Positions 17,337 to 28,028 of a DNA stretch of 64,000 nucleotides are shown here, in pieces. How positions within the stretch are numbered: the first letter of the stretch is position 1; each line of letters begins with the position of its first letter. The notes beneath the pieces are model-generated. The model searched no databases. It was given only the letters and a program-made list of their open reading frames with translations, and was not told the DNA's origin. This stretch comes from an uncultured delta proteobacterium (GTDB lineage Bacteria > Myxococcota_A > Polyangia > Polyangiales > Polyangiaceae). Where the stretch lies: the NCBI GenBank assembly GCA_963782055.1, contig CAWAIF010000003.1, forward strand, positions 5,920,001 through 5,984,000, in the 5' to 3' direction. Made by a program: the position numbers and the translations under genes.

Positions 17337-18389
17337 TCAGTGGGCGACGCACACGTCGGTGTCGCCGACGTGGGTGCACCAGTAGCCGTTGGGGCACCTG
17401 TCGCCGTGGCCGCAGGGGCGCGAGCAGTACTTGTCCCCGCTGTCGTCCACGCAGACGCCGGCGGCGCAGTCGGCGCCCTTCTCGCAGGGCTCGCCCATGT
17501 CGCTCTCCGGCTTCTGCTGCTTGGGCGGCTTGACGCCCGCGTCCTTCTTCACGGTGACGACGCCGCCGTCGGTGTCGGCGGGCTCCTGCCCGCTCTTGGC
17601 CAGGGCGGAGGCGATGAGGTCGGCGAAGGCGTCCGCCCGCGTGTAGATGTTGTGCACGTCCTTGCCCTCGCAGCTGGGGCCGCCGCGCGAGACGACGCCC
17701 ATCACGTCGCCGGTGGACTCCTCCAGCGCGGGGCCGCCGGAGTCGCCGTTGCAGGTGGCCTCGCCCACCTGGAACTCGCTGTCGGTCGCGCTGAGGATCC
17801 GCACGTGATCGCGCAGGAGCTTGACGCCGGCGCTCTGCAGGTCCCCCGCCTTGCCGAAGCCGACGGCGCGCACGGTGCCGTTCTTCCTGGGGACCTTCTT
17901 GCTGATGTGCAGCGGGGCGATGCCGGCGACGTCGCGGTCCAGGACGATCGCCGCGATGTCGTGGTCGCAGAGGGTCTTCGCCTTCGGCACCACCAGCTCG
18001 CGACCGCGGGCGACGAAGGTGGAGTGCTCGACGTCGTCGCCGACGTAGATGGCGAGGGAGCTCGCCGGCCGATCGCCGCTGATCTGCACGCCGTCGGCCG
18101 GGCAGGCGACCGACTCGCTGGTGATGGAGACGCAGTGCCGGGCCGTGAGGACGACGTCGGTCGCGATGAGGGTGCCGCTGCACAGTCCCTCGCCCCCCAC
18201 GTCGATGGCGACGACGGCAGGGTCGCGCCCGTTGTCGGGCACGCCCTTGACGATCTCGGTGGTGTCGACCTGAACGGCCGCGTCGGCGCCGGCGTCGGAC
18301 GGGACGGGGCGCGCCTTGGCGGTGAGCGCACCGGAGCAGCCGGTGAGCAGGGTGGAGAGAACGAGCGTTCGAACGATGACAGCTTGCAT
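17337..18389 (-). CDS. Trypsin-like (S1) serine protease lipoprotein
   Basis: Lipobox LTGC; LTARHC, HDIA, CNGDSGGP; Cys-rich tail. Confidence 0.9.
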   Translation of the reverse strand: MQAVIVRTLVLSTLLTGCSGALTAKARPVPSDAGADAAVQVDTTEIVKGVPDNGRDPAVVAIDVGGEGLCSGTLIATDVVLTARHCVSITSESVACPADGVQISGDRPASSLAIYVGDDVEHSTFVARGRELVVPKAKTLCDHDIAAIVLDRDVAGIAPLHISKKVPRKNGTVRAVGFGKAGDLQSAGVKLLRDHVRILSATDSEFQVGEATCNGDSGGPALEESTGDVMGVVSRGGPSCEGKDVHNIYTRADAFADLIASALAKSGQEPADTDGGVVTVKKDAGVKPPKQQKPESDMGEPCEKGADCAAGVCVDDSGDKYCSRPCGHGDRCPNGYWCTHVGDTDVCVAH

Positions 18390-18420
18390 GGAACGTGACC
18401 TCCTTCGAGAGGTCGTCTCC

Positions 18421-18436
18421 GCAACGCGCGTGCCGG
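18421..18436 (-). promoter_or_regulatory. Sigma54 -24/-12 promoter of the S1 protease gene
   Basis: Minus strand CCGGCACGCGCGTTGC (GG-N10-GC), about 30 nt upstream of the ATG, with a GGAGG RBS in between. Confidence 0.6.
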
Positions 18437-18522
18437 CCACGGCGAGGCTGATTTCCCGAGCGCGCGCCTGTCCCAGGTGTCCGCGCCGCCTGTCCGGGGA
18501 CACCCCGGGTCCCGCGGAGCGC

Positions 18523-22208: not shown

Positions 22209-23468
22209 TCAGTGGCAGGCCGGGCGAGAACCGGGCTCACGAAGCCAGCAGGCGCCGTCGAACACCTCGCGCGGGCCTGTCCCGTCCTTGGCGAGCTTGC
22301 GCAGGATCTCGCCGTCCGCGTCGGGGTCGACCAGCCGCGCGGCGATGCGCGGGTGCGGGTTGCTCCTGTCGAGCACGTGCTCGTTGTCCGTCCACACCAG
22401 GTGATAGCCCCAGGCGAGGGCCGGCTTGCCTGCGTCGTCGAAGCTCCAGGAGAGGTCGGCGATCATTCCCAGCCGCGTCCAGCCATTGAGGTAGACGACG
22501 TGCCGGTCCTGCTGCCGCGCCGGGAAGCGCGGCGTCCAGGACTCGCCCTGGTTGGAGACGAGGTTGCCGACCGAGGCGAAGACCGGCACGCGCCGGCCGT
22601 CCTCCGTGGTCACCACCTGCAGCGGGCTGACCACGTGCGGGTGGTGAATGACGACCGCGCTCGCGCCCGCCTCGGCGACGGCGCGGGCGAGCCCGAGCAT
22701 GGCGGCGGTCTGGGGAAGGTACTCCTCGCCACCGTGGAAGATGGCGATCGTGGCGTCGCACCCGGCGTGGAAGGCGCGTGCGATGCCCAGCGCCGCCTTC
22801 AGCTGGCCTCGCCGGTCGGGTGTGGCGACCGCCAGCTCGGCGGAGCTCGCGCAGGCGGAGCGGCGCTCGTTGGAGAAGGTGGTCCACGCCACCGCGCACA
22901 CGCGGAAGCCGGGCGTGTCGACCAGCACGCGCGCCTTCCACGGGTCGTCCGCGGCGGCGCCGAGCGCGGTGGTCCCCGTGGCGTCGGCGGCGGCGAGCGT
23001 CGCGCGCAGACCGCGCCCGCCCAGGTCGCAGGTGTGGTTGTTCGCCACCGTCAGCGCGTGAAGACCCGCGTCGTGCAGGGCGCGCATCCACTCCGGCGTC
23101 GCCGCCAGCGTGAAGGTGTGGGGGACCATCCCGCTCGGATCGCCCGTCGCCGTCTCGTAGTTCGCCACCGCGACGTCGGCCGATGCGAACAGCGGCGAGA
23201 GCGGCCAGAGCGCCTCCGCCACGCGCGGCGGGTCCACCAGCTGAGGCCGGTGAGGCAGCACGTCGCCCGCGACCAGCACGCGCACCGGCCGCCGGGCGAC
23301 CTTCGCGACCGCGGCATGGGCCGGCGCCCCCCCCCGACGCGGAACCTTCGGCGGCTCCGCGGCGACCGCGAGCTGCGCGTGGTTCGCCGGGACCTGCGCC
23401 GCCGGGTCGGGCGCCCCGCACGCCGCCGCGAGGCCCACGAGCGCCAGGATCACGCGGCCGAGCGTCAT
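22209..23468 (-). CDS. CapA/PGA_cap-family metallophosphoesterase-like lipoprotein
   Basis: Lipobox LAAAC; VAGDVL, ANYET, VANNHTCD, FHGGEEY, HHPHV, SVGNLVS. Confidence 0.8.
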   Translation of the reverse strand: MTLGRVILALVGLAAACGAPDPAAQVPANHAQLAVAAEPPKVPRRGGAPAHAAVAKVARRPVRVLVAGDVLPHRPQLVDPPRVAEALWPLSPLFASADVAVANYETATGDPSGMVPHTFTLAATPEWMRALHDAGLHALTVANNHTCDLGGRGLRATLAAADATGTTALGAAADDPWKARVLVDTPGFRVCAVAWTTFSNERRSACASSAELAVATPDRRGQLKAALGIARAFHAGCDATIAIFHGGEEYLPQTAAMLGLARAVAEAGASAVVIHHPHVVSPLQVVTTEDGRRVPVFASVGNLVSNQGESWTPRFPARQQDRHVVYLNGWTRLGMIADLSWSFDDAGKPALAWGYHLVWTDNEHVLDRSNPHPRIAARLVDPDADGEILRKLAKDGTGPREVFDGACWLREPGSRPACH

Positions 23469-23572: not shown

Positions 23573-24805
23573 TCACTTCAGCGTGATGCGTGCCAGGCGG
23601 CACGCGCCGCCGAAGTTGGGCAGCGGGTGCGCGTAGCCCACCACGATCTGCTTCCCGTCGACGGAGCGCAGCGCCCCGTGCTCCTTGGCGAGATAGTTGG
23701 TGCCCGCGTCGCCCGTCACGAAGGCGCTGCCTGAGACCACCACCTCCGGGTCGGTCCACGGACCCGTGATGGCGTCGGCGGTGCGCAACGCGACGTCGTC
23801 GGAGAGCGGCTTGCTGTAGACGGCCAGCCACTTGCCGAGCCACGGGTTGCGCTGGATGGAGATCCCGTAGCTCGCGCGGTCGATGAACCACGCGGCCTGC
23901 GTCACGTCGGCCACCCACCCCGCGCCACTCCAGAAGGTGTACGCAGCCCTCGTCGTGGCGCCGGCGACCGGCGCCTTGGCGATCTTGCAGTGGTAGTCGA
24001 ACCCCAGCGCCTGCTCGCAGTCGAAGAGGTAGACGGTGTCGCCGTCGACCGTGGCGCCGCCGACCCCGAAGAGCGGGTCGGGCGGCTGGAAGAGGAAGCT
24101 GGGATCGCGCGTGGCCTGCGTCGAGTCCTTCGTGACGTGCGCGGTGCCGACGGCGTCCACGGCGAAGCCGCTCCCGCCGCTGCGCACGACGTGGTTGAAG
24201 AGCACCACGCCCTCCGTCGCGCTGGTCGGGATCACCGAGCCGGGCCAGAGGGCGAAGCCGTTGCCCGCGTCCGCCTGGTTCTGCGCCACCTCGGCCGGCG
24301 TGTAGGGGATGAACTCCATCGGCAGCCCGGCGTCGTCCAGCGGCTCGGTGAGGGCCAGCGGGCTCGCGGGCGTGCTCCACCCCGCGGTGCTGGAGCGCAC
24401 CGAGGTGCCGTCCTGCGCGTTCGGCTTGGTCAGGAAGGTGTCGCCGAACGTCCAGACCAGCTCGCCCCCGATCAGCCCCGACGTCGTCCCGTCGCGCCCG
24501 ACCACCGTCCCCGGCGCGCTGAAGGCGCCCAGGTCGTCGACGTGGTCGACGGCGAGCACGTGCCCCCCAGCGTCCGCTGCGGCGTCGACTCCGGCGTCGC
24601 CCGGCGCATCCGGGTTGCTGCACGCAACAACGAGCGGCAGCGCGACCGCCAGCGCGAGGACCGGCGCGCGTTCCCGGGACGTGCGCCGCGGCGCACCACC
24701 CTCCCCGTGTGGCGCGCGAAGCGCGACACCGTGGGGAGGGCGCCCACGCGCAGGGCCCGCGCGCAAGCTCTCGTGCGCGGCGACGTCCGTGTACTCTGCA
24801 CCCAT
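23573..24805 (-). CDS. DUF4185-like beta-propeller lipoprotein (start uncertain)
   Basis: Lipobox VVAC; GRDG...WTFGDTF, YTFWSGAGW, GPWTDP. Confidence 0.6.
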   Translation of the reverse strand: MGAEYTDVAAHESLRAGPARGRPPHGVALRAPHGEGGAPRRTSRERAPVLALAVALPLVVACSNPDAPGDAGVDAAADAGGHVLAVDHVDDLGAFSAPGTVVGRDGTTSGLIGGELVWTFGDTFLTKPNAQDGTSVRSSTAGWSTPASPLALTEPLDDAGLPMEFIPYTPAEVAQNQADAGNGFALWPGSVIPTSATEGVVLFNHVVRSGGSGFAVDAVGTAHVTKDSTQATRDPSFLFQPPDPLFGVGGATVDGDTVYLFDCEQALGFDYHCKIAKAPVAGATTRAAYTFWSGAGWVADVTQAAWFIDRASYGISIQRNPWLGKWLAVYSKPLSDDVALRTADAITGPWTDPEVVVSGSAFVTGDAGTNYLAKEHGALRSVDGKQIVVGYAHPLPNFGGACRLARITLK

Positions 24806-24870: not shown

Positions 24871-26154
24871 TCATCCCTCGGTCTCCCCGAACGCCTGGTA
24901 CCGCGCGCGCTCCTCCTCGCTCGGCCATGCCTCCTTCACGATCGCGAACTTTCCATGATCGAAGGGCAGCCCCGGCGCCTCCGCCACCTTCACGATCCGC
25001 TCCCGCTCCCCGCTCGCGAGCAGCTCCAGCGCGCGGTGATGGCAGTACGGGTTGTCCCCCGCCTTGCCGAAGAGCACGTGCGTCGTCCAGTTGCAGCCCG
25101 CCATGCACGCCTCCGCGTAGTAGCAGGTGCGGCAGAAGCCGCCGAGGTCCTCCACCGTGCGGTCGCGGGTGAAGCGCAGCTCCTTGCTCTGCTCCCAGAT
25201 GTCCAGGAGCGTGGCGTCGCGCACGTTGCCGCCGACGTACTCCTCCGTCGGGAGGGAGGGGCAGCCCTTGATGTCGCCGTTGGCCTCGATGCCCAGCACC
25301 AGGCGGCCCGCGCCGCACGGCCCGCGGTGCTTCTGCGCGTACATGCTGCGCAGGTGCGCCTCGAAGGGACCGAAGTACCCGATGTTGTTGCCCGCCCAGA
25401 AGCGGACGCCCGTCTCGTCGGCGCGCGACTTGAGGCGCGCGAGCATCGGGATCACCTCCAGCACCTGATACGGCTCCAGCAGCATCTCCGGCTCGTCGCC
25501 GGCGCGGCCCATGGCGGTGGTGAGCTGCATCTGCCAGCCGTGGATCTTCTTCTTCACGAAGATCTCGAAGACCTCGGGGATCTCGTGCAGGTTGACGCGG
25601 TTGATCTGCGTGTTGGCGGCGATGGCGATGCCGGCCGCCTTGGCGTTGTCCATCGCCGCCATGGCGGCGGCGAAGCTCCCCTCCACGCCGCGCAGCAGAT
25701 CGTGTGTACTCTGCAATCCATCCACCGACACGCTGATGCTCTGGATGCCCGCCGCCTTCGCCGCGCGCGCGCGCTCCGCCGTCAGCCCGCGGCCGCCGGT
25801 GGTCATCGTGCACTGCATGCCGAGGCGGCGGATCTCCCGGGCGATGTCCACCCAGTCCTCGCGCAGGTAGGCCTCGCCGCCGATGAGGGTCACCTCCAGC
25901 ACGCCGAGCTCGTGCATCTGCCGGACGAGATCGAGCGCCTGCGCGGTGTCCAGCTCGTCCGGGCGGCCGCGGCCGGCGCGCGAGCCGCAGTGGCGGCAGG
26001 CGAGATCGCAGGCGAGGGTGATCTCCCAGACGGCGTAGATGGGGCGGACCTTGTCCTTGTCGCGCACCTCCGCGGCGAGCGGCAGCCGCCGCTTCGACGG
26101 CTCCGCCATCGGGGCGATGGGGAGGCTGCGCGGGCGGGCGCCGAGGATGGTCAC
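24871..26154 (-). CDS. Radical SAM/SPASM peptide maturase, PlpX (splicease)-like
   Basis: YAVWEITLACDLACRHCGSRAG (CxxxCxxC), GNNIGYFGP; SPASM region LGIEANGDIKGCPSL...CRTCYYAEACMAGC...NPYCHHRAL, PGLPFDHG. Confidence 0.9.
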   Translation of the reverse strand: MTILGARPRSLPIAPMAEPSKRRLPLAAEVRDKDKVRPIYAVWEITLACDLACRHCGSRAGRGRPDELDTAQALDLVRQMHELGVLEVTLIGGEAYLREDWVDIAREIRRLGMQCTMTTGGRGLTAERARAAKAAGIQSISVSVDGLQSTHDLLRGVEGSFAAAMAAMDNAKAAGIAIAANTQINRVNLHEIPEVFEIFVKKKIHGWQMQLTTAMGRAGDEPEMLLEPYQVLEVIPMLARLKSRADETGVRFWAGNNIGYFGPFEAHLRSMYAQKHRGPCGAGRLVLGIEANGDIKGCPSLPTEEYVGGNVRDATLLDIWEQSKELRFTRDRTVEDLGGFCRTCYYAEACMAGCNWTTHVLFGKAGDNPYCHHRALELLASGERERIVKVAEAPGLPFDHGKFAIVKEAWPSEEERARYQAFGETEG

Positions 26155-26520
26155 TCAGTCGCCCCCGGAGTCGAGGGTTCCGGCGTCGGGCGGCGGGCCG
26201 CCGTAGGCGCCCTGGAGCGCGTCGGGGCCGGCGTCCTTCGCGGCGGCGTCGGCGTCGGGCCCGCCGTCCGCCAGCGCCGCGTCGTCTCCGTTGCCGCCGT
26301 CGTACGGAGGGGCGGGCGCCCCGTACACGGGCGTCAGTACCACGCCGCTGCCGCAGGCCGTCGCCACCATCGTAGCGCCGGCGACGAGCACGGCGCGGCT
26401 CACGCGCCCCGGAGCCACGCGCGCAGGAATGGAGTCGACGCGCGCCTCGCCGCAGAAGGGACAGCGGGCGTCCTCCGCGCGCACGTGGCGGCGGCAGTGC
26501 TCGCAAAGGTGAAAGCTCAT
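26155..26520 (-). CDS. Putative RiPP precursor 1 (Zn-ribbon leader, lipobox, two YG motifs)
   Basis: CEHCRRHVRAEDARCPFCG; VATAC; PVYGAP and GAYGGPP. Confidence 0.8.
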   Translation of the reverse strand: MSFHLCEHCRRHVRAEDARCPFCGEARVDSIPARVAPGRVSRAVLVAGATMVATACGSGVVLTPVYGAPAPPYDGGNGDDAALADGGPDADAAAKDAGPDALQGAYGGPPPDAGTLDSGGD

Positions 26521-26532
26521 GACGTGAGCGTA

Positions 26533-26607
26533 TCAACCGCCGCAGAAGGGGCAAGCAGCGTCCGCGCGCGCGCGCGGCGGCTGGCAGCCGTCGCGGGTGA
26601 AGCTCAC
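26533..26607 (-). pseudogene. 24-codon degenerate copy of the precursor leader
   Basis: Manual translation from GTG: MSFTRDGCQPPRARADAACPFCGG*. Confidence 0.6.
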
Positions 26608-26619
26608 GGCCTCAGGCCA

Positions 26620-27081
26620 TCAAAGGTCCGGTGGGTGGTCCTTCGGCGGCTTGTGGTGACGCGGGGGCGGCGGGCCTCCGTAGACGGTGACGTGCCTGCG
26701 ACGCCCGGCGTCGGCGGCGTCCGGCGAAGCGGTGTGATCGCTCACGCCGGCGTCCGGTCCGGCCGTGTCCTCGCTCGCGCCGGCATCGGGGGGCGCGACG
26801 GTGGGGATGGGCGGGGGAGGCGCCCCGTAGGCGGGCACCGCGACCACCGTCGGCATCGGCGCGGGCGGAGACGCGGACTTGTCGGTGAACCACCCGCGCG
26901 GATCGGCGGTCGTGTTGCAGCCGACGGCGACGGCCGCGACGCCGACGAGGGCCGCGCGGGTGAGGCGAGCCGGCGCCGTCCGTGAGGGCGCGGAGGCGGC
27001 CCCGGCGGATGCACCACAGAAGGGGCACGCGGCGTCGGCGGATCGCACGTGCCGGCGGCACGCCGCGCAGACGACGAGCAT
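26620..27081 (-). CDS. Putative RiPP precursor 2
   Basis: MLVVCAACRRHVRSADAACPFCG; VAVGC; PAYGAPP and TVYGGPP; TGATG overlap with precursor 3. Confidence 0.8.
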   Translation of the reverse strand: MLVVCAACRRHVRSADAACPFCGASAGAASAPSRTAPARLTRAALVGVAAVAVGCNTTADPRGWFTDKSASPPAPMPTVVAVPAYGAPPPPIPTVAPPDAGASEDTAGPDAGVSDHTASPDAADAGRRRHVTVYGGPPPPRHHKPPKDHPPDL

Positions 27082-27443
27082 CAGTCGGTTCCGGCGTCGG
27101 TGGGCGGGCCCCCGTACGCCGCGATCGGTCCCTCGTCGGCCGCGTCCTGCGGCGGCGCGGCGTCGAGGGGCGGGCCGCCGTAAAAGACGAGCGGCCCGTC
27201 GATCGACGAGTCCTTGGCGGCGTCCAGGCCGGCGGCGTCGGCGCCGCCGTCGGTGGGCTCGGTCGTGCTGCCGCCACACGCCACCGCCACCGCCGCCACG
27301 CCGATGAGCGCCGCCGCACGGCTCTTGCGCCAGGGCGAGCCCGGCGATCGCCCGGCGCCGACGATGGTGGCGCCGCAGAAGGGACACGCGGCGTCCTCCT
27401 GCTTCACGTGACGCGCGCACCCGGAGCAAATGCAGAGCGGCAT
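27081..27443 (-). CDS. Putative RiPP precursor 3
   Basis: GGAGG RBS; MPLCICSGCARHVKQEDAACPFCG; VAVAC; VFYGGPP and AAYGGPP. Confidence 0.8.
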   Translation of the reverse strand: MPLCICSGCARHVKQEDAACPFCGATIVGAGRSPGSPWRKSRAAALIGVAAVAVACGGSTTEPTDGGADAAGLDAAKDSSIDGPLVFYGGPPLDAAPPQDAADEGPIAAYGGPPTDAGTD

Positions 27444-27632: not shown

Positions 27633-28028
27633 CTACACCATCAGTCCCGGCAGCGGCCCCTGACCGGCCTGCCCGAAGGTGGGCGTCGGGTCCCCCATCG
27701 CCCGGGCGATGCTCACCAGCAGATCGGCGTGCCGGTGGTAGCCCACGTCGTGGAGCTGGCCGGTGTGGACCGCGCCGCCCCCGCCGCCCCCCAGGATGAA
27801 CGCCCTGACCATGTGCTTCGACACCGCCGACGCGCAGTCGCCGGTGCACTTCTTCGGGTCGTCGAAGGGCATCTTGGCGTCGACGAAGCTGGTGAGCGAG
27901 GCGAGGTCATAGCGCGGCCCGCGATCGCGCAGGGAGGGGCCGCTGCCGCCCTCGCCCTGCGCGCCGTGGCAGCTCGCGCATTGCGACGCGTAGATCGGCT
28001 TGCCGTCCTGCGCAAAATTCCGCCACAT
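27633..28028 (-). CDS. c-type cytochrome domain (CxxCH) fused to an unrelated C-terminal fragment; possible relic
   Basis: CASCH and KMP; no signal peptide; tail ends ...TFGQAGQGPLPGLMV. Confidence 0.6.
   Translation of the reverse strand: MWRNFAQDGKPIYASQCASCHGAQGEGGSGPSLRDRGPRYDLASLTSFVDAKMPFDDPKKCTGDCASAVSKHMVRAFILGGGGGGAVHTGQLHDVGYHRHADLLVSIARAMGDPTPTFGQAGQGPLPGLMV

Follow-up and report, generated by a model that had tools for sequence, protein, structure and literature searches.

Candidate spliceotide precursors of Myxococcota that combine a zinc-ribbon leader with a lipoprotein-type signal

Three precursor genes lie directly upstream of a radical SAM/SPASM gene

The window, i.e., the whole 64,000-nt stretch of DNA analyzed here, comes from an uncultured delta proteobacterium (Polyangiaceae; assembly GCA_963782055.1) and corresponds to positions 5,920,001 to 5,984,000 of contig CAWAIF010000003.1. 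Three short open reading frames, P0001 to P0003, are co-oriented with the gene for a radical SAM/SPASM enzyme, P0004, and lie directly upstream of it. The stop codon of P0001 overlaps the ATG of P0002, and the stop codon of P0003 abuts the GTG start of P0004. The features of the locus and its surroundings are as follows, in window coordinates.

27633-28028, minus strand: small cytochrome c
27081-27443, minus strand: candidate precursor P0001, 120 aa, an ORF with ribbon, lipobox, and two XYG sites
27375-27428, minus strand: ribbon of P0001
27279-27323, minus strand: hydrophobic stretch of P0001
27276-27278, minus strand: lipobox Cys56 of P0001
27177-27185 and 27111-27119, minus strand: XYG sites of P0001 (FYG and AYG)
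26620-27081, minus strand: candidate precursor P0002, 153 aa, an ORF with ribbon, lipobox, two XYG sites, and a Pro-rich basic tail
27016-27069, minus strand: ribbon of P0002
26920-26961, minus strand: hydrophobic stretch of P0002
26917-26919, minus strand: lipobox Cys55 of P0002
26824-26832 and 26677-26685, minus strand: XYG sites of P0002 (AYG and VYG)
26155-26520, minus strand: candidate precursor P0003, 121 aa, an ORF with ribbon, lipobox, and two XYG sites
26452-26505, minus strand: ribbon of P0003
26356-26400, minus strand: hydrophobic stretch of P0003
26353-26355, minus strand: lipobox Cys56 of P0003
26320-26328 and 26200-26208, minus strand: XYG sites of P0003 (VYG and AYG)
24871-26154, minus strand: radical SAM/SPASM enzyme P0004, 427 aa, with matches to TIGR04103, TIGR03913, and Pfam Radical_SAM and SPASM
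23576-24799, minus strand: DUF4185-like protein (match below the cutoff; domain start uncertain)
22212-23390, minus strand: PGA_cap (CapA-like) protein
17337-18503, minus strand: trypsin-like protease

The three precursors share one layout, in which a four-Cys ribbon is followed by a basic Pro/Ala linker, an uncharged hydrophobic stretch, a lipobox Cys, and a core. A preliminary description of this DNA had picked out the ribbon motif, the hydrophobic stretch, and a Pro/Asp/Ala/Gly-rich core holding the YG sites, and all three elements were recovered. The motif CxxC-x-RHV-x6-CPFCG occupies residues 6 to 23 of P0001 and P0003 and residues 5 to 22 of P0002, and from this motif the ribbon is inferred to bind zinc. 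The hydrophobic stretch, led by [ST]RA[AV], begins at residue 41 in each precursor and ends in VAVAC (P0001, Cys56), VAVGC (P0002, Cys55), or VATAC (P0003, Cys56). Both XYG sites of each precursor lie C-terminal to the lipobox Cys, in cores that are 57 to 73% Pro, Asp, Ala, and Gly. If cut before the Cys, the predicted mature chains would be 65 aa (P0001), 99 aa (P0002), and 66 aa (P0003) long.

Searches of P0001 to P0003 against Pfam and NCBIfam gave no family above the cutoff, only weak zinc-ribbon and RING matches, and a promoter scan at the locus found nothing exceeding shuffled sequence. A six-frame scan of the 7.58-Mb genome with a loose CxxC..CPxC pattern yielded eight matches, five of which belong to this precursor family; the motif is therefore not a chance occurrence. 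An HMM search added a sixth family copy. Two copies are orphans without an adjacent enzyme: one (L001:7003-7449; G000:C3 near 119003) has Asp at position −1 of the Cys, and the other (L125:1679-2032; G000:C3 near 1478310) has YG immediately after the lipobox Cys.

P0004 belongs to the PlpX splicease clade

P0004 holds CxxxCxxC at residues 49, 53, and 56 plus the SPASM cysteines and lacks a C-terminal ribbon. Its best family is TIGR04103, the PlpX family, at 481 bits, under the cutoff of 725 bits. The match to TIGR03913 reaches 444 bits, under the cutoff of 591.75 bits, and stops at profile position 391 of 477. Because P0004 is 47 to 51% identical to annotated members of both families, namely the nif11-class enzymes (51% for a Nostoc maturase) and the GDL-type enzymes, it represents a sister subfamily. 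Its nearest relatives are found mostly in genomes labeled Myxococcales, Polyangiales, or deltaproteobacterial. In a quick tree, P0004 groups with annotated members of these families, apart from the outgroup; the tree leaves its base open and favors no direction of fusion or fission. A sequence search of the PDB returned no solved splicease, the best matches being SkfB and PqqE. By sequence, P0004 is a member of the PlpX splicease clade of radical SAM/SPASM enzymes, whose characterized members are described as excising tyramine at XYG (PMC11414181, PMC9811515).

The same genome encodes a second enzyme paralogue, 60% identical to P0004 (C3:2324320-2325519, minus strand), with its own ribbon/lipobox precursor. 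The precursor at this second locus (L002:6867-8652, equivalent to G000:C3 2323866-2325651, minus strand) has a single YG followed by two more Cys residues near the C terminus. Elsewhere, locus L085 (G119:C4) has a tandem pair of enzyme genes that flank precursors, and one of the enzyme frames stops 59 residues past CxxxCxxC. In genome G074 (L146 and L135), the enzyme, an adjoining ORF, and a distant precursor share the same short YG-containing terminal peptide, which may represent a repeat or an insertion site, stem from an assembly artefact, or act as a self-substrate.

The precursor family spans Myxococcota and pairs core Tyr with Gly

A ribbon ORF was present at 67 of 80 enzyme loci and at 26 of 29 further loci from the phylum; among the loci without one, several are short contigs, and L015 was recovered by a looser pattern. 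The locus scan gave 171 ORFs (168 unique), from which a final set of 159 precursors was retained after leaving out two without Cys (L037 and L087, the latter also without the hydrophobic stretch) and seven cut by the end of a locus or contig. Judged by these sequences, the precursor family is real and widespread and spans Myxococcota.

YG follows the Cys in 155/159 locus precursors and precedes it in none, and 398 of their 428 core Tyr residues are followed by Gly. A leader-only profile search gave 6333 proteins at E ≤ 0.001; statistics were drawn from the 150 matches listed, minus 18 multi-ribbon proteins. Among these 132 listed matches, YG follows the Cys in 123, and 295 of 313 core Tyr residues are in Tyr-Gly. 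The control rate was 148/1568 in 719 host lipoprotein-like ORFs, chosen by a heuristic with a lipobox pattern.

We hold it very probable, on the basis of these sequence features, that P0004 splices the precursors. Other chemistry at Tyr or at the conserved Cys in place of tyramine excision, e.g., a thioether or aryl cross-link, would be compatible with the position of P0004 under both family cutoffs, with the C-Y-G adjacency found in 6/159 precursors, and with a truncated complex model (see below) in which Cys56 points into the barrel. It is nonetheless very unlikely, given the identity of P0004 to both nif11-class and GDL-type enzymes, the strict Tyr-Gly pairing, a Cys-to-first-YG spacing that ranges from 1 to 80 residues across the family, and the retention of YG in Cys-less paralogues.

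The preliminary description had called for a motif search across Myxococcota with a check of linkage to the radical SAM gene. In a sample of 151 genomes from the phylum, the enzyme, called at E ≤ 1e-100 plus one broken copy, was found in 41, and full-length leader matches were found in 35, of which 34 carry the enzyme. The match in the one remaining genome is a membrane protein without YG, i.e., false, and the linkage was thereby borne out. Related genomes in the sample are not independent, and the presence of precursors beside the enzyme is partly circular because some loci had helped to build the leader profile; their absence from the 110 enzyme-less genomes is not. In total, an enzyme is encoded no more than 6 kb away for 54 of the 76 leader matches, and the other 22 are located elsewhere. 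The 21 real distant ORFs all have YG and all occur in enzyme-bearing genomes and are therefore probably substrates in trans. Among the seven enzyme genomes without a leader match, four have divergent precursors, one has a YG protein truncated at the edge of a contig, and the fetched flanks of the other two showed none.

Across 110 enzyme loci, we found no conserved peptidase or transporter (an ABC signature occurred in three frames and a C39-like motif in none), in line with the earlier suggestion that a dedicated peptidase is absent. Conserved accessory genes were also considered and set aside, as the recurring clusters proved to be antisense shadows, Ser/Thr kinases, or synteny of close kin. 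None of the DUF4185-like, PGA_cap, trypsin-like, and cytochrome c neighbors of the present locus is among the recurring neighbor families listed.

The ribbon is modeled on the enzyme, and similar ribbons occur on related enzymes

The preliminary description had proposed that the zinc ribbon is the leader recognized by the maturase. In agreement with that proposal, a complex model placed the ribbon on the enzyme, and similar ribbons were found on GDL-type enzymes. For the model, an alignment was supplied for P0004 and another for residues 1 to 56 of P0003, and Zn as well as three 4Fe-4S clusters were carried along. The model scored 0.91 and the best of three controls 0.03; the score mark was reached by 116/157 solved pairs versus 2/215 mismatched pairs, a benchmark that is only rough for this purpose. 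Model runs share at least 87% of contacts, with partner pLDDT of at least 63. The confident part of the modeled interface comprises leader residues 1, 3, 5, 9 to 12, 14, and 21 to 22, centered on His12, and a predicted ribbon-binding patch on P0004 at residues 261 to 267, 274 to 276, and 345 to 349. The leader residues His12, Pro21, and Phe22 are at least 90% conserved across the family, and Gly262, Pro263, Glu265, Tyr345, and Tyr346 are invariant in 110 enzymes. The hydrophobic stretch received no confident placement. Cys56, the cut end of the truncated leader, contacts P0004 residues 91, 118, 120, and 143 in the model, which could be an artefact or a hint of another chemistry.

Covariation of the leader His with Tyr345 was considered as docking evidence and was not counted, as most of it comes from a single clade. 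Of the Tyr345 enzymes at loci where a leader was detected, 97 have His-only leaders, two have leaders with no His, and one is mixed, and the single non-Tyr345 enzyme has a leader with no His. The pattern is not independent support because the His-less or degenerate leaders share one branch, which also holds a locus with a canonical His leader (L148).

P0002 weakly matches positions 428 to 465 of TIGR03913 (E = 0.11), and a comparison prompted by this match showed that the GDL-type enzymes from Azospirillum, Aureibacter, and Ralstonia carry a similar ribbon, followed by a helix, at their C termini. The short DUF1843-type substrates of the GDL enzymes have no ribbon, nor does the Nostoc type I enzyme. 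The leader HMM matched the C-terminal extension in 14/14 GDL-type enzymes at 21.6 to 31 bits, although 11 of the 14 had been collected using that same region, and the background of the ribbon HMM reached 22.4 bits for the best unrelated ribbon among 80,727 genome ORFs and up to 21.6 bits for unrelated PDB ribbons. These sequence matches make a modest case that the leader ribbon and the GDL enzyme ribbon are homologous. A C-terminal ribbon was found in 0/124 myxobacterial enzyme frames. The complementary placement of the ribbon, on the substrate or on the enzyme, suggests that this module needs to be positioned on the enzyme, and it parallels the engineered C-terminal leader fusions described in PMC11414181.

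In a single case, a plasmid enzyme of Tropicibacter oceani (L116:2692-4314), a precursor-type ribbon is fused at the N terminus. This enzyme groups with the myxobacterial enzymes in the quick tree; its neighbors are a second radical SAM gene, a phosphotransferase, and two peptidases, with no ribbon precursor nearby.

It is also conceivable that the helix rather than the ribbon activates the enzyme, as a Y protein or RhaA leader helix does, with a product that stays in the cytoplasm or that a general protease frees as a soluble RiPP. Activation of spliceases by a helix of the leader or of the Y protein is described in PMC11414181, GDL enzymes carry a long helix after the ribbon, loci L144 and L145 retain the helix while the ribbon is degenerate, and L087 has no signal. 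However, the complex model puts the ribbon, not the helix, on P0004. An HMM of the helix alone misses both the GDL helix and the Nostoc Y protein and instead finds signals of host lipoproteins, some of which begin with the same SRAAL, and the OmpA and PF11617 cores described below indicate export. This reading is distinctly improbable. The specific resemblance of SRAAL to RRALI of the GDL enzymes and to the Nostoc Y helix was likewise dropped, since the helix-only HMM matched none of them and ordinary host lipoprotein signals also start SRAAL-like. An AlphaFold model of a GDL enzyme, built from a 10-sequence alignment (mean pLDDT, 63.5), shows the ribbon and then a long helix and is uninformative on docking. 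Docking of the ribbon on the splicease as a recognition leader, as modeled, is quite probable.

The hydrophobic stretch resembles a lipoprotein signal

A lipoprotein-type signal had been proposed for these precursors, and the statistics of the lipobox, as well as its likeness to host signals, are consistent with that assignment. Position −1 of the Cys is Ala in 95, Gly in 50, and Ser in 5 locus precursors (150/159), and position +2 is Gly in 63 and Ser in 50 (113/159). Positions −12 to −2 are uncharged in 150/159, and a basic residue (K/R) lies upstream in 156/159. A PROSITE-like lipobox pattern was passed by 143/159, including P0001 to P0003. The 719 host lipoprotein-like ORFs have Ala in 421 and Gly in 212 at −1, Gly in 230 and Ser in 157 at +2, and Leu in 214 and Ala in 194 at −3, a comparison in which the shared lipobox is partly built in, as the host set had been chosen with a lipobox pattern. 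An HMM of the helix plus lipobox recovers ordinary Met-started host lipoprotein signals.

The precursors thus have a basic n-region, an uncharged h-region, and a lipobox Cys, but the Cys lies deep. Ordinary lipoproteins have it within about 35 residues of the N terminus; Cys55/56 of P0001 to P0003 is about 20 residues deeper, and across the family its position ranges from 38 to 81 (median, 61). P0001 to P0003 have no internal Met at −30 to −12 that could bypass the ribbon, and our literature search found no precedent for a folded ribbon ahead of a lipoprotein signal. The spacing between ribbon and Cys ranges from 15 to 45 residues; the position of the Cys therefore follows that of the hydrophobic stretch rather than that of the ribbon. 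P0001 to P0003 all have Ala at position −3, versus the canonical Leu given in PMC9360617.

In locus L137 (G050:C128:72000-78000), ten ribbon precursors are arrayed away from the enzyme, and most of them end in a PF11617-type motif. Five of the ten have the lipobox Cys, and the other five have Ala with an end compatible with signal peptidase I. The lipobox Cys is thus not universal in the family, which qualifies the preliminary description. A Cys-less precursor in L142 has a canonical Ala-His-Ala cleavage site. Such Cys-less variants support export but show that any lipidation is optional.

A domain scan of 13 precursors found OmpA in one core and PF11617 in four, above the cutoffs; both are extracytoplasmic domains. 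The OmpA member (L023:4282-5007) has a single YG in addition to the ribbon and lipobox, and its OmpA domain lies at the C terminus. The genome carries Lgt (three matches) and LspA (two matches). Export by the Tat pathway was considered and rejected, as the twin-Arg consensus occurs in 3/166 precursors and any RR in 35/166.

The precursors could instead be spliced and not lipidated, with the stretch as an uncleaved membrane anchor, the ribbon inside, the core outside, and the Cys serving for a disulfide dimer or missed by Lgt. The depth of the Cys, the Cys-less paralogues, and the noncanonical −3 position would fit such an anchor. On the other side, the −1 and +2 preferences mirror those of the host lipoprotein-like ORFs, the hydrophobic stretch is short and finishes at the Cys, and the Cys-less L142 member has an Ala-x-Ala site. 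We regard the anchor as unlikely, and export with lipidation, as read from the sequences, as likely.

The system differs from described spliceotide and lipoprotein pairs

The locus has the sequence features of the spliceotide class, i.e., a PlpX-clade enzyme with adjacent precursors that carry XYG motifs. Type I systems, such as PlpA/PlpX/PlpY and PcpAXY of Pleurocapsa (TIGR04103; described in PMC11414181, PMC9811515, and PMC11002830), have enzymes of the same clade and XYG targets. They differ from the present system in having a Nif11 leader and a separate Y gene rather than a ribbon leader and a lipobox signal. P0001 to P0003 gave no Nif11 match, which upholds the earlier statement that the leader is not of the Nif11 type, and the leader HMM had no match to Nostoc X, Y, and A proteins. 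No Y-like gene was found at the locus or as a recurring neighbor in a clustering that covered ORFs of at least 110 aa. P0004, at 481 bits, also falls short of the 725-bit cutoff, so the type I combination of enzyme, Nif11 leader, and Y protein is absent. The binary type II systems RhaXA, RcsXA, and RasXA of Rheinheimera and the engineered RhaX-leader fusion are presented in PMC11414181 and PMC11626197 as two-component, with no Y protein, and with a leader element that works on the substrate or fused to the enzyme C terminus. The type II element is a Y-like helix, whereas the element here is a zinc ribbon plus a lipoprotein signal, and a coincidence of binding site is not implied.

The GDL-motif/DUF1843 systems (TIGR03913; Azospirillum L113 and Aureibacter L115) have enzyme cores 47 to 50% identical to P0004. 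Both kinds of enzyme have GPxE and the CYY patch, and a similar ribbon occurs in both systems. In the GDL type, the ribbon is the C-terminal extension of the enzyme, and the DUF1843 substrates, 55 to 70 aa long, carry neither ribbon nor signal. In the present system, it is the substrate that bears the ribbon, and P0004 ends before the ribbon position. P0004 is under the 591.75-bit cutoff and lacks the C-terminal extension and DUF1843 substrates of that type, and 0/151 genomes from the phylum had a match above this cutoff.

The catalogued Bacteroidota pair TIGR04133 and TIGR04134 likewise combines an rSAM/SPASM enzyme with a putative lipoprotein. In the one member inspected (L150:2402-3981), the lipoprotein has EYGTP 12 residues after the lipobox Cys; lipoprotein substrates therefore have a precedent. 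That lipoprotein differs in its signal, which is short and of the ordinary kind, and in lacking both a ribbon and a low-complexity multi-YG core. P0004 scores 156 bits against TIGR04133 (cutoff, 425), and TIGR04134 was found in 0/6 genomes, including the source genome. On this sequence evidence, we classify the system as a putative lipoprotein variant of the spliceotide class that is neither type I, GDL type, nor TIGR04133/04134. Myxobacteria were reportedly part of the 2022 survey of Scott, and the system may thus already be one of its types. As related in PMC10849128, that survey covered 189 genera and confirmed 27 pairs. None of the papers covered by our literature search describes a spliceotide that is lipid-anchored or has a ribbon leader.

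A proposed path from precursor to lipid-anchored product

The explanation that we favor, with some reserve, is that pre-lipoproteins are the substrates of a two-component spliceotide system. The first step would take place in the cytoplasm, where the four-Cys ribbon at the N terminus, which includes a conserved His, would dock, as modeled, on the splicease beside the SPASM domain. P0004 would then excise tyramine at XYG, leaving reactive ketoamides in the precursor backbone before export; splicing is placed in the cytoplasm because P0004, an Fe-S enzyme, lacks a signal and depends on SAM. The hydrophobic stretch would next function as a signal peptide whose n-region is unusually long, and export would probably be post-translational through Sec, so that the ribbon stays inside. 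Host Lgt would lipidate the Cys and LspA would remove the ribbon and signal together, and a cluster-encoded peptidase or transporter would therefore not be needed. The product would be a 65- to 99-residue lipid-anchored chain with two ketoamides in the envelope, and any protein bearing the ribbon leader would be a substrate in trans. On sequence grounds, then, the predicted products are lipoproteins of that size rather than released peptides, and relatives carry folded domains.

By analogy with the protease inhibition reported in reviews for three synthetic spliceotides (PMC9811515, PMC10849128), the likeliest role of the products, which we put forward tentatively, would be to trap serine or cysteine proteases while tethered.

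More speculatively, several observations might be joined in a single reading, which as a whole we consider possible rather than probable. The ribbon would be a portable splicease tag and a disposable "modify, then export" cassette, carried on the substrate in Myxococcota, on the enzyme C terminus in the GDL type, and on the N terminus in one Tropicibacter plasmid. It would keep the pre-lipoprotein on the oxygen-sensitive enzyme until spliced, after which LspA would discard it. Myxococcota would display repertoires of backbone-spliced, multivalent ketoamide lipoproteins, with up to ten paralogues per array and many in trans, and in C-Y-G members, one of them in this genome, the lipidated Cys would become a β-amino-α-keto residue.

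Section 2.6 of a 2022 review (PMC9811515) records no native spliceotide isolated as of that time. If the products are lipoproteins, small-molecule extraction would miss them, the membrane fractions of culturable myxobacteria could hold them, and the natural function of spliceotides would become testable. The proposed path, if true, would link RiPP chemistry with the general lipoprotein pathway, LspA taking the part of the leader peptidase. A ribbon of ∼25 residues usable on either substrate or enzyme would then be nature's equivalent of the leader fusions that have been engineered for protein splicing, and it might serve as a tag with which ketoamides are displayed on cells.
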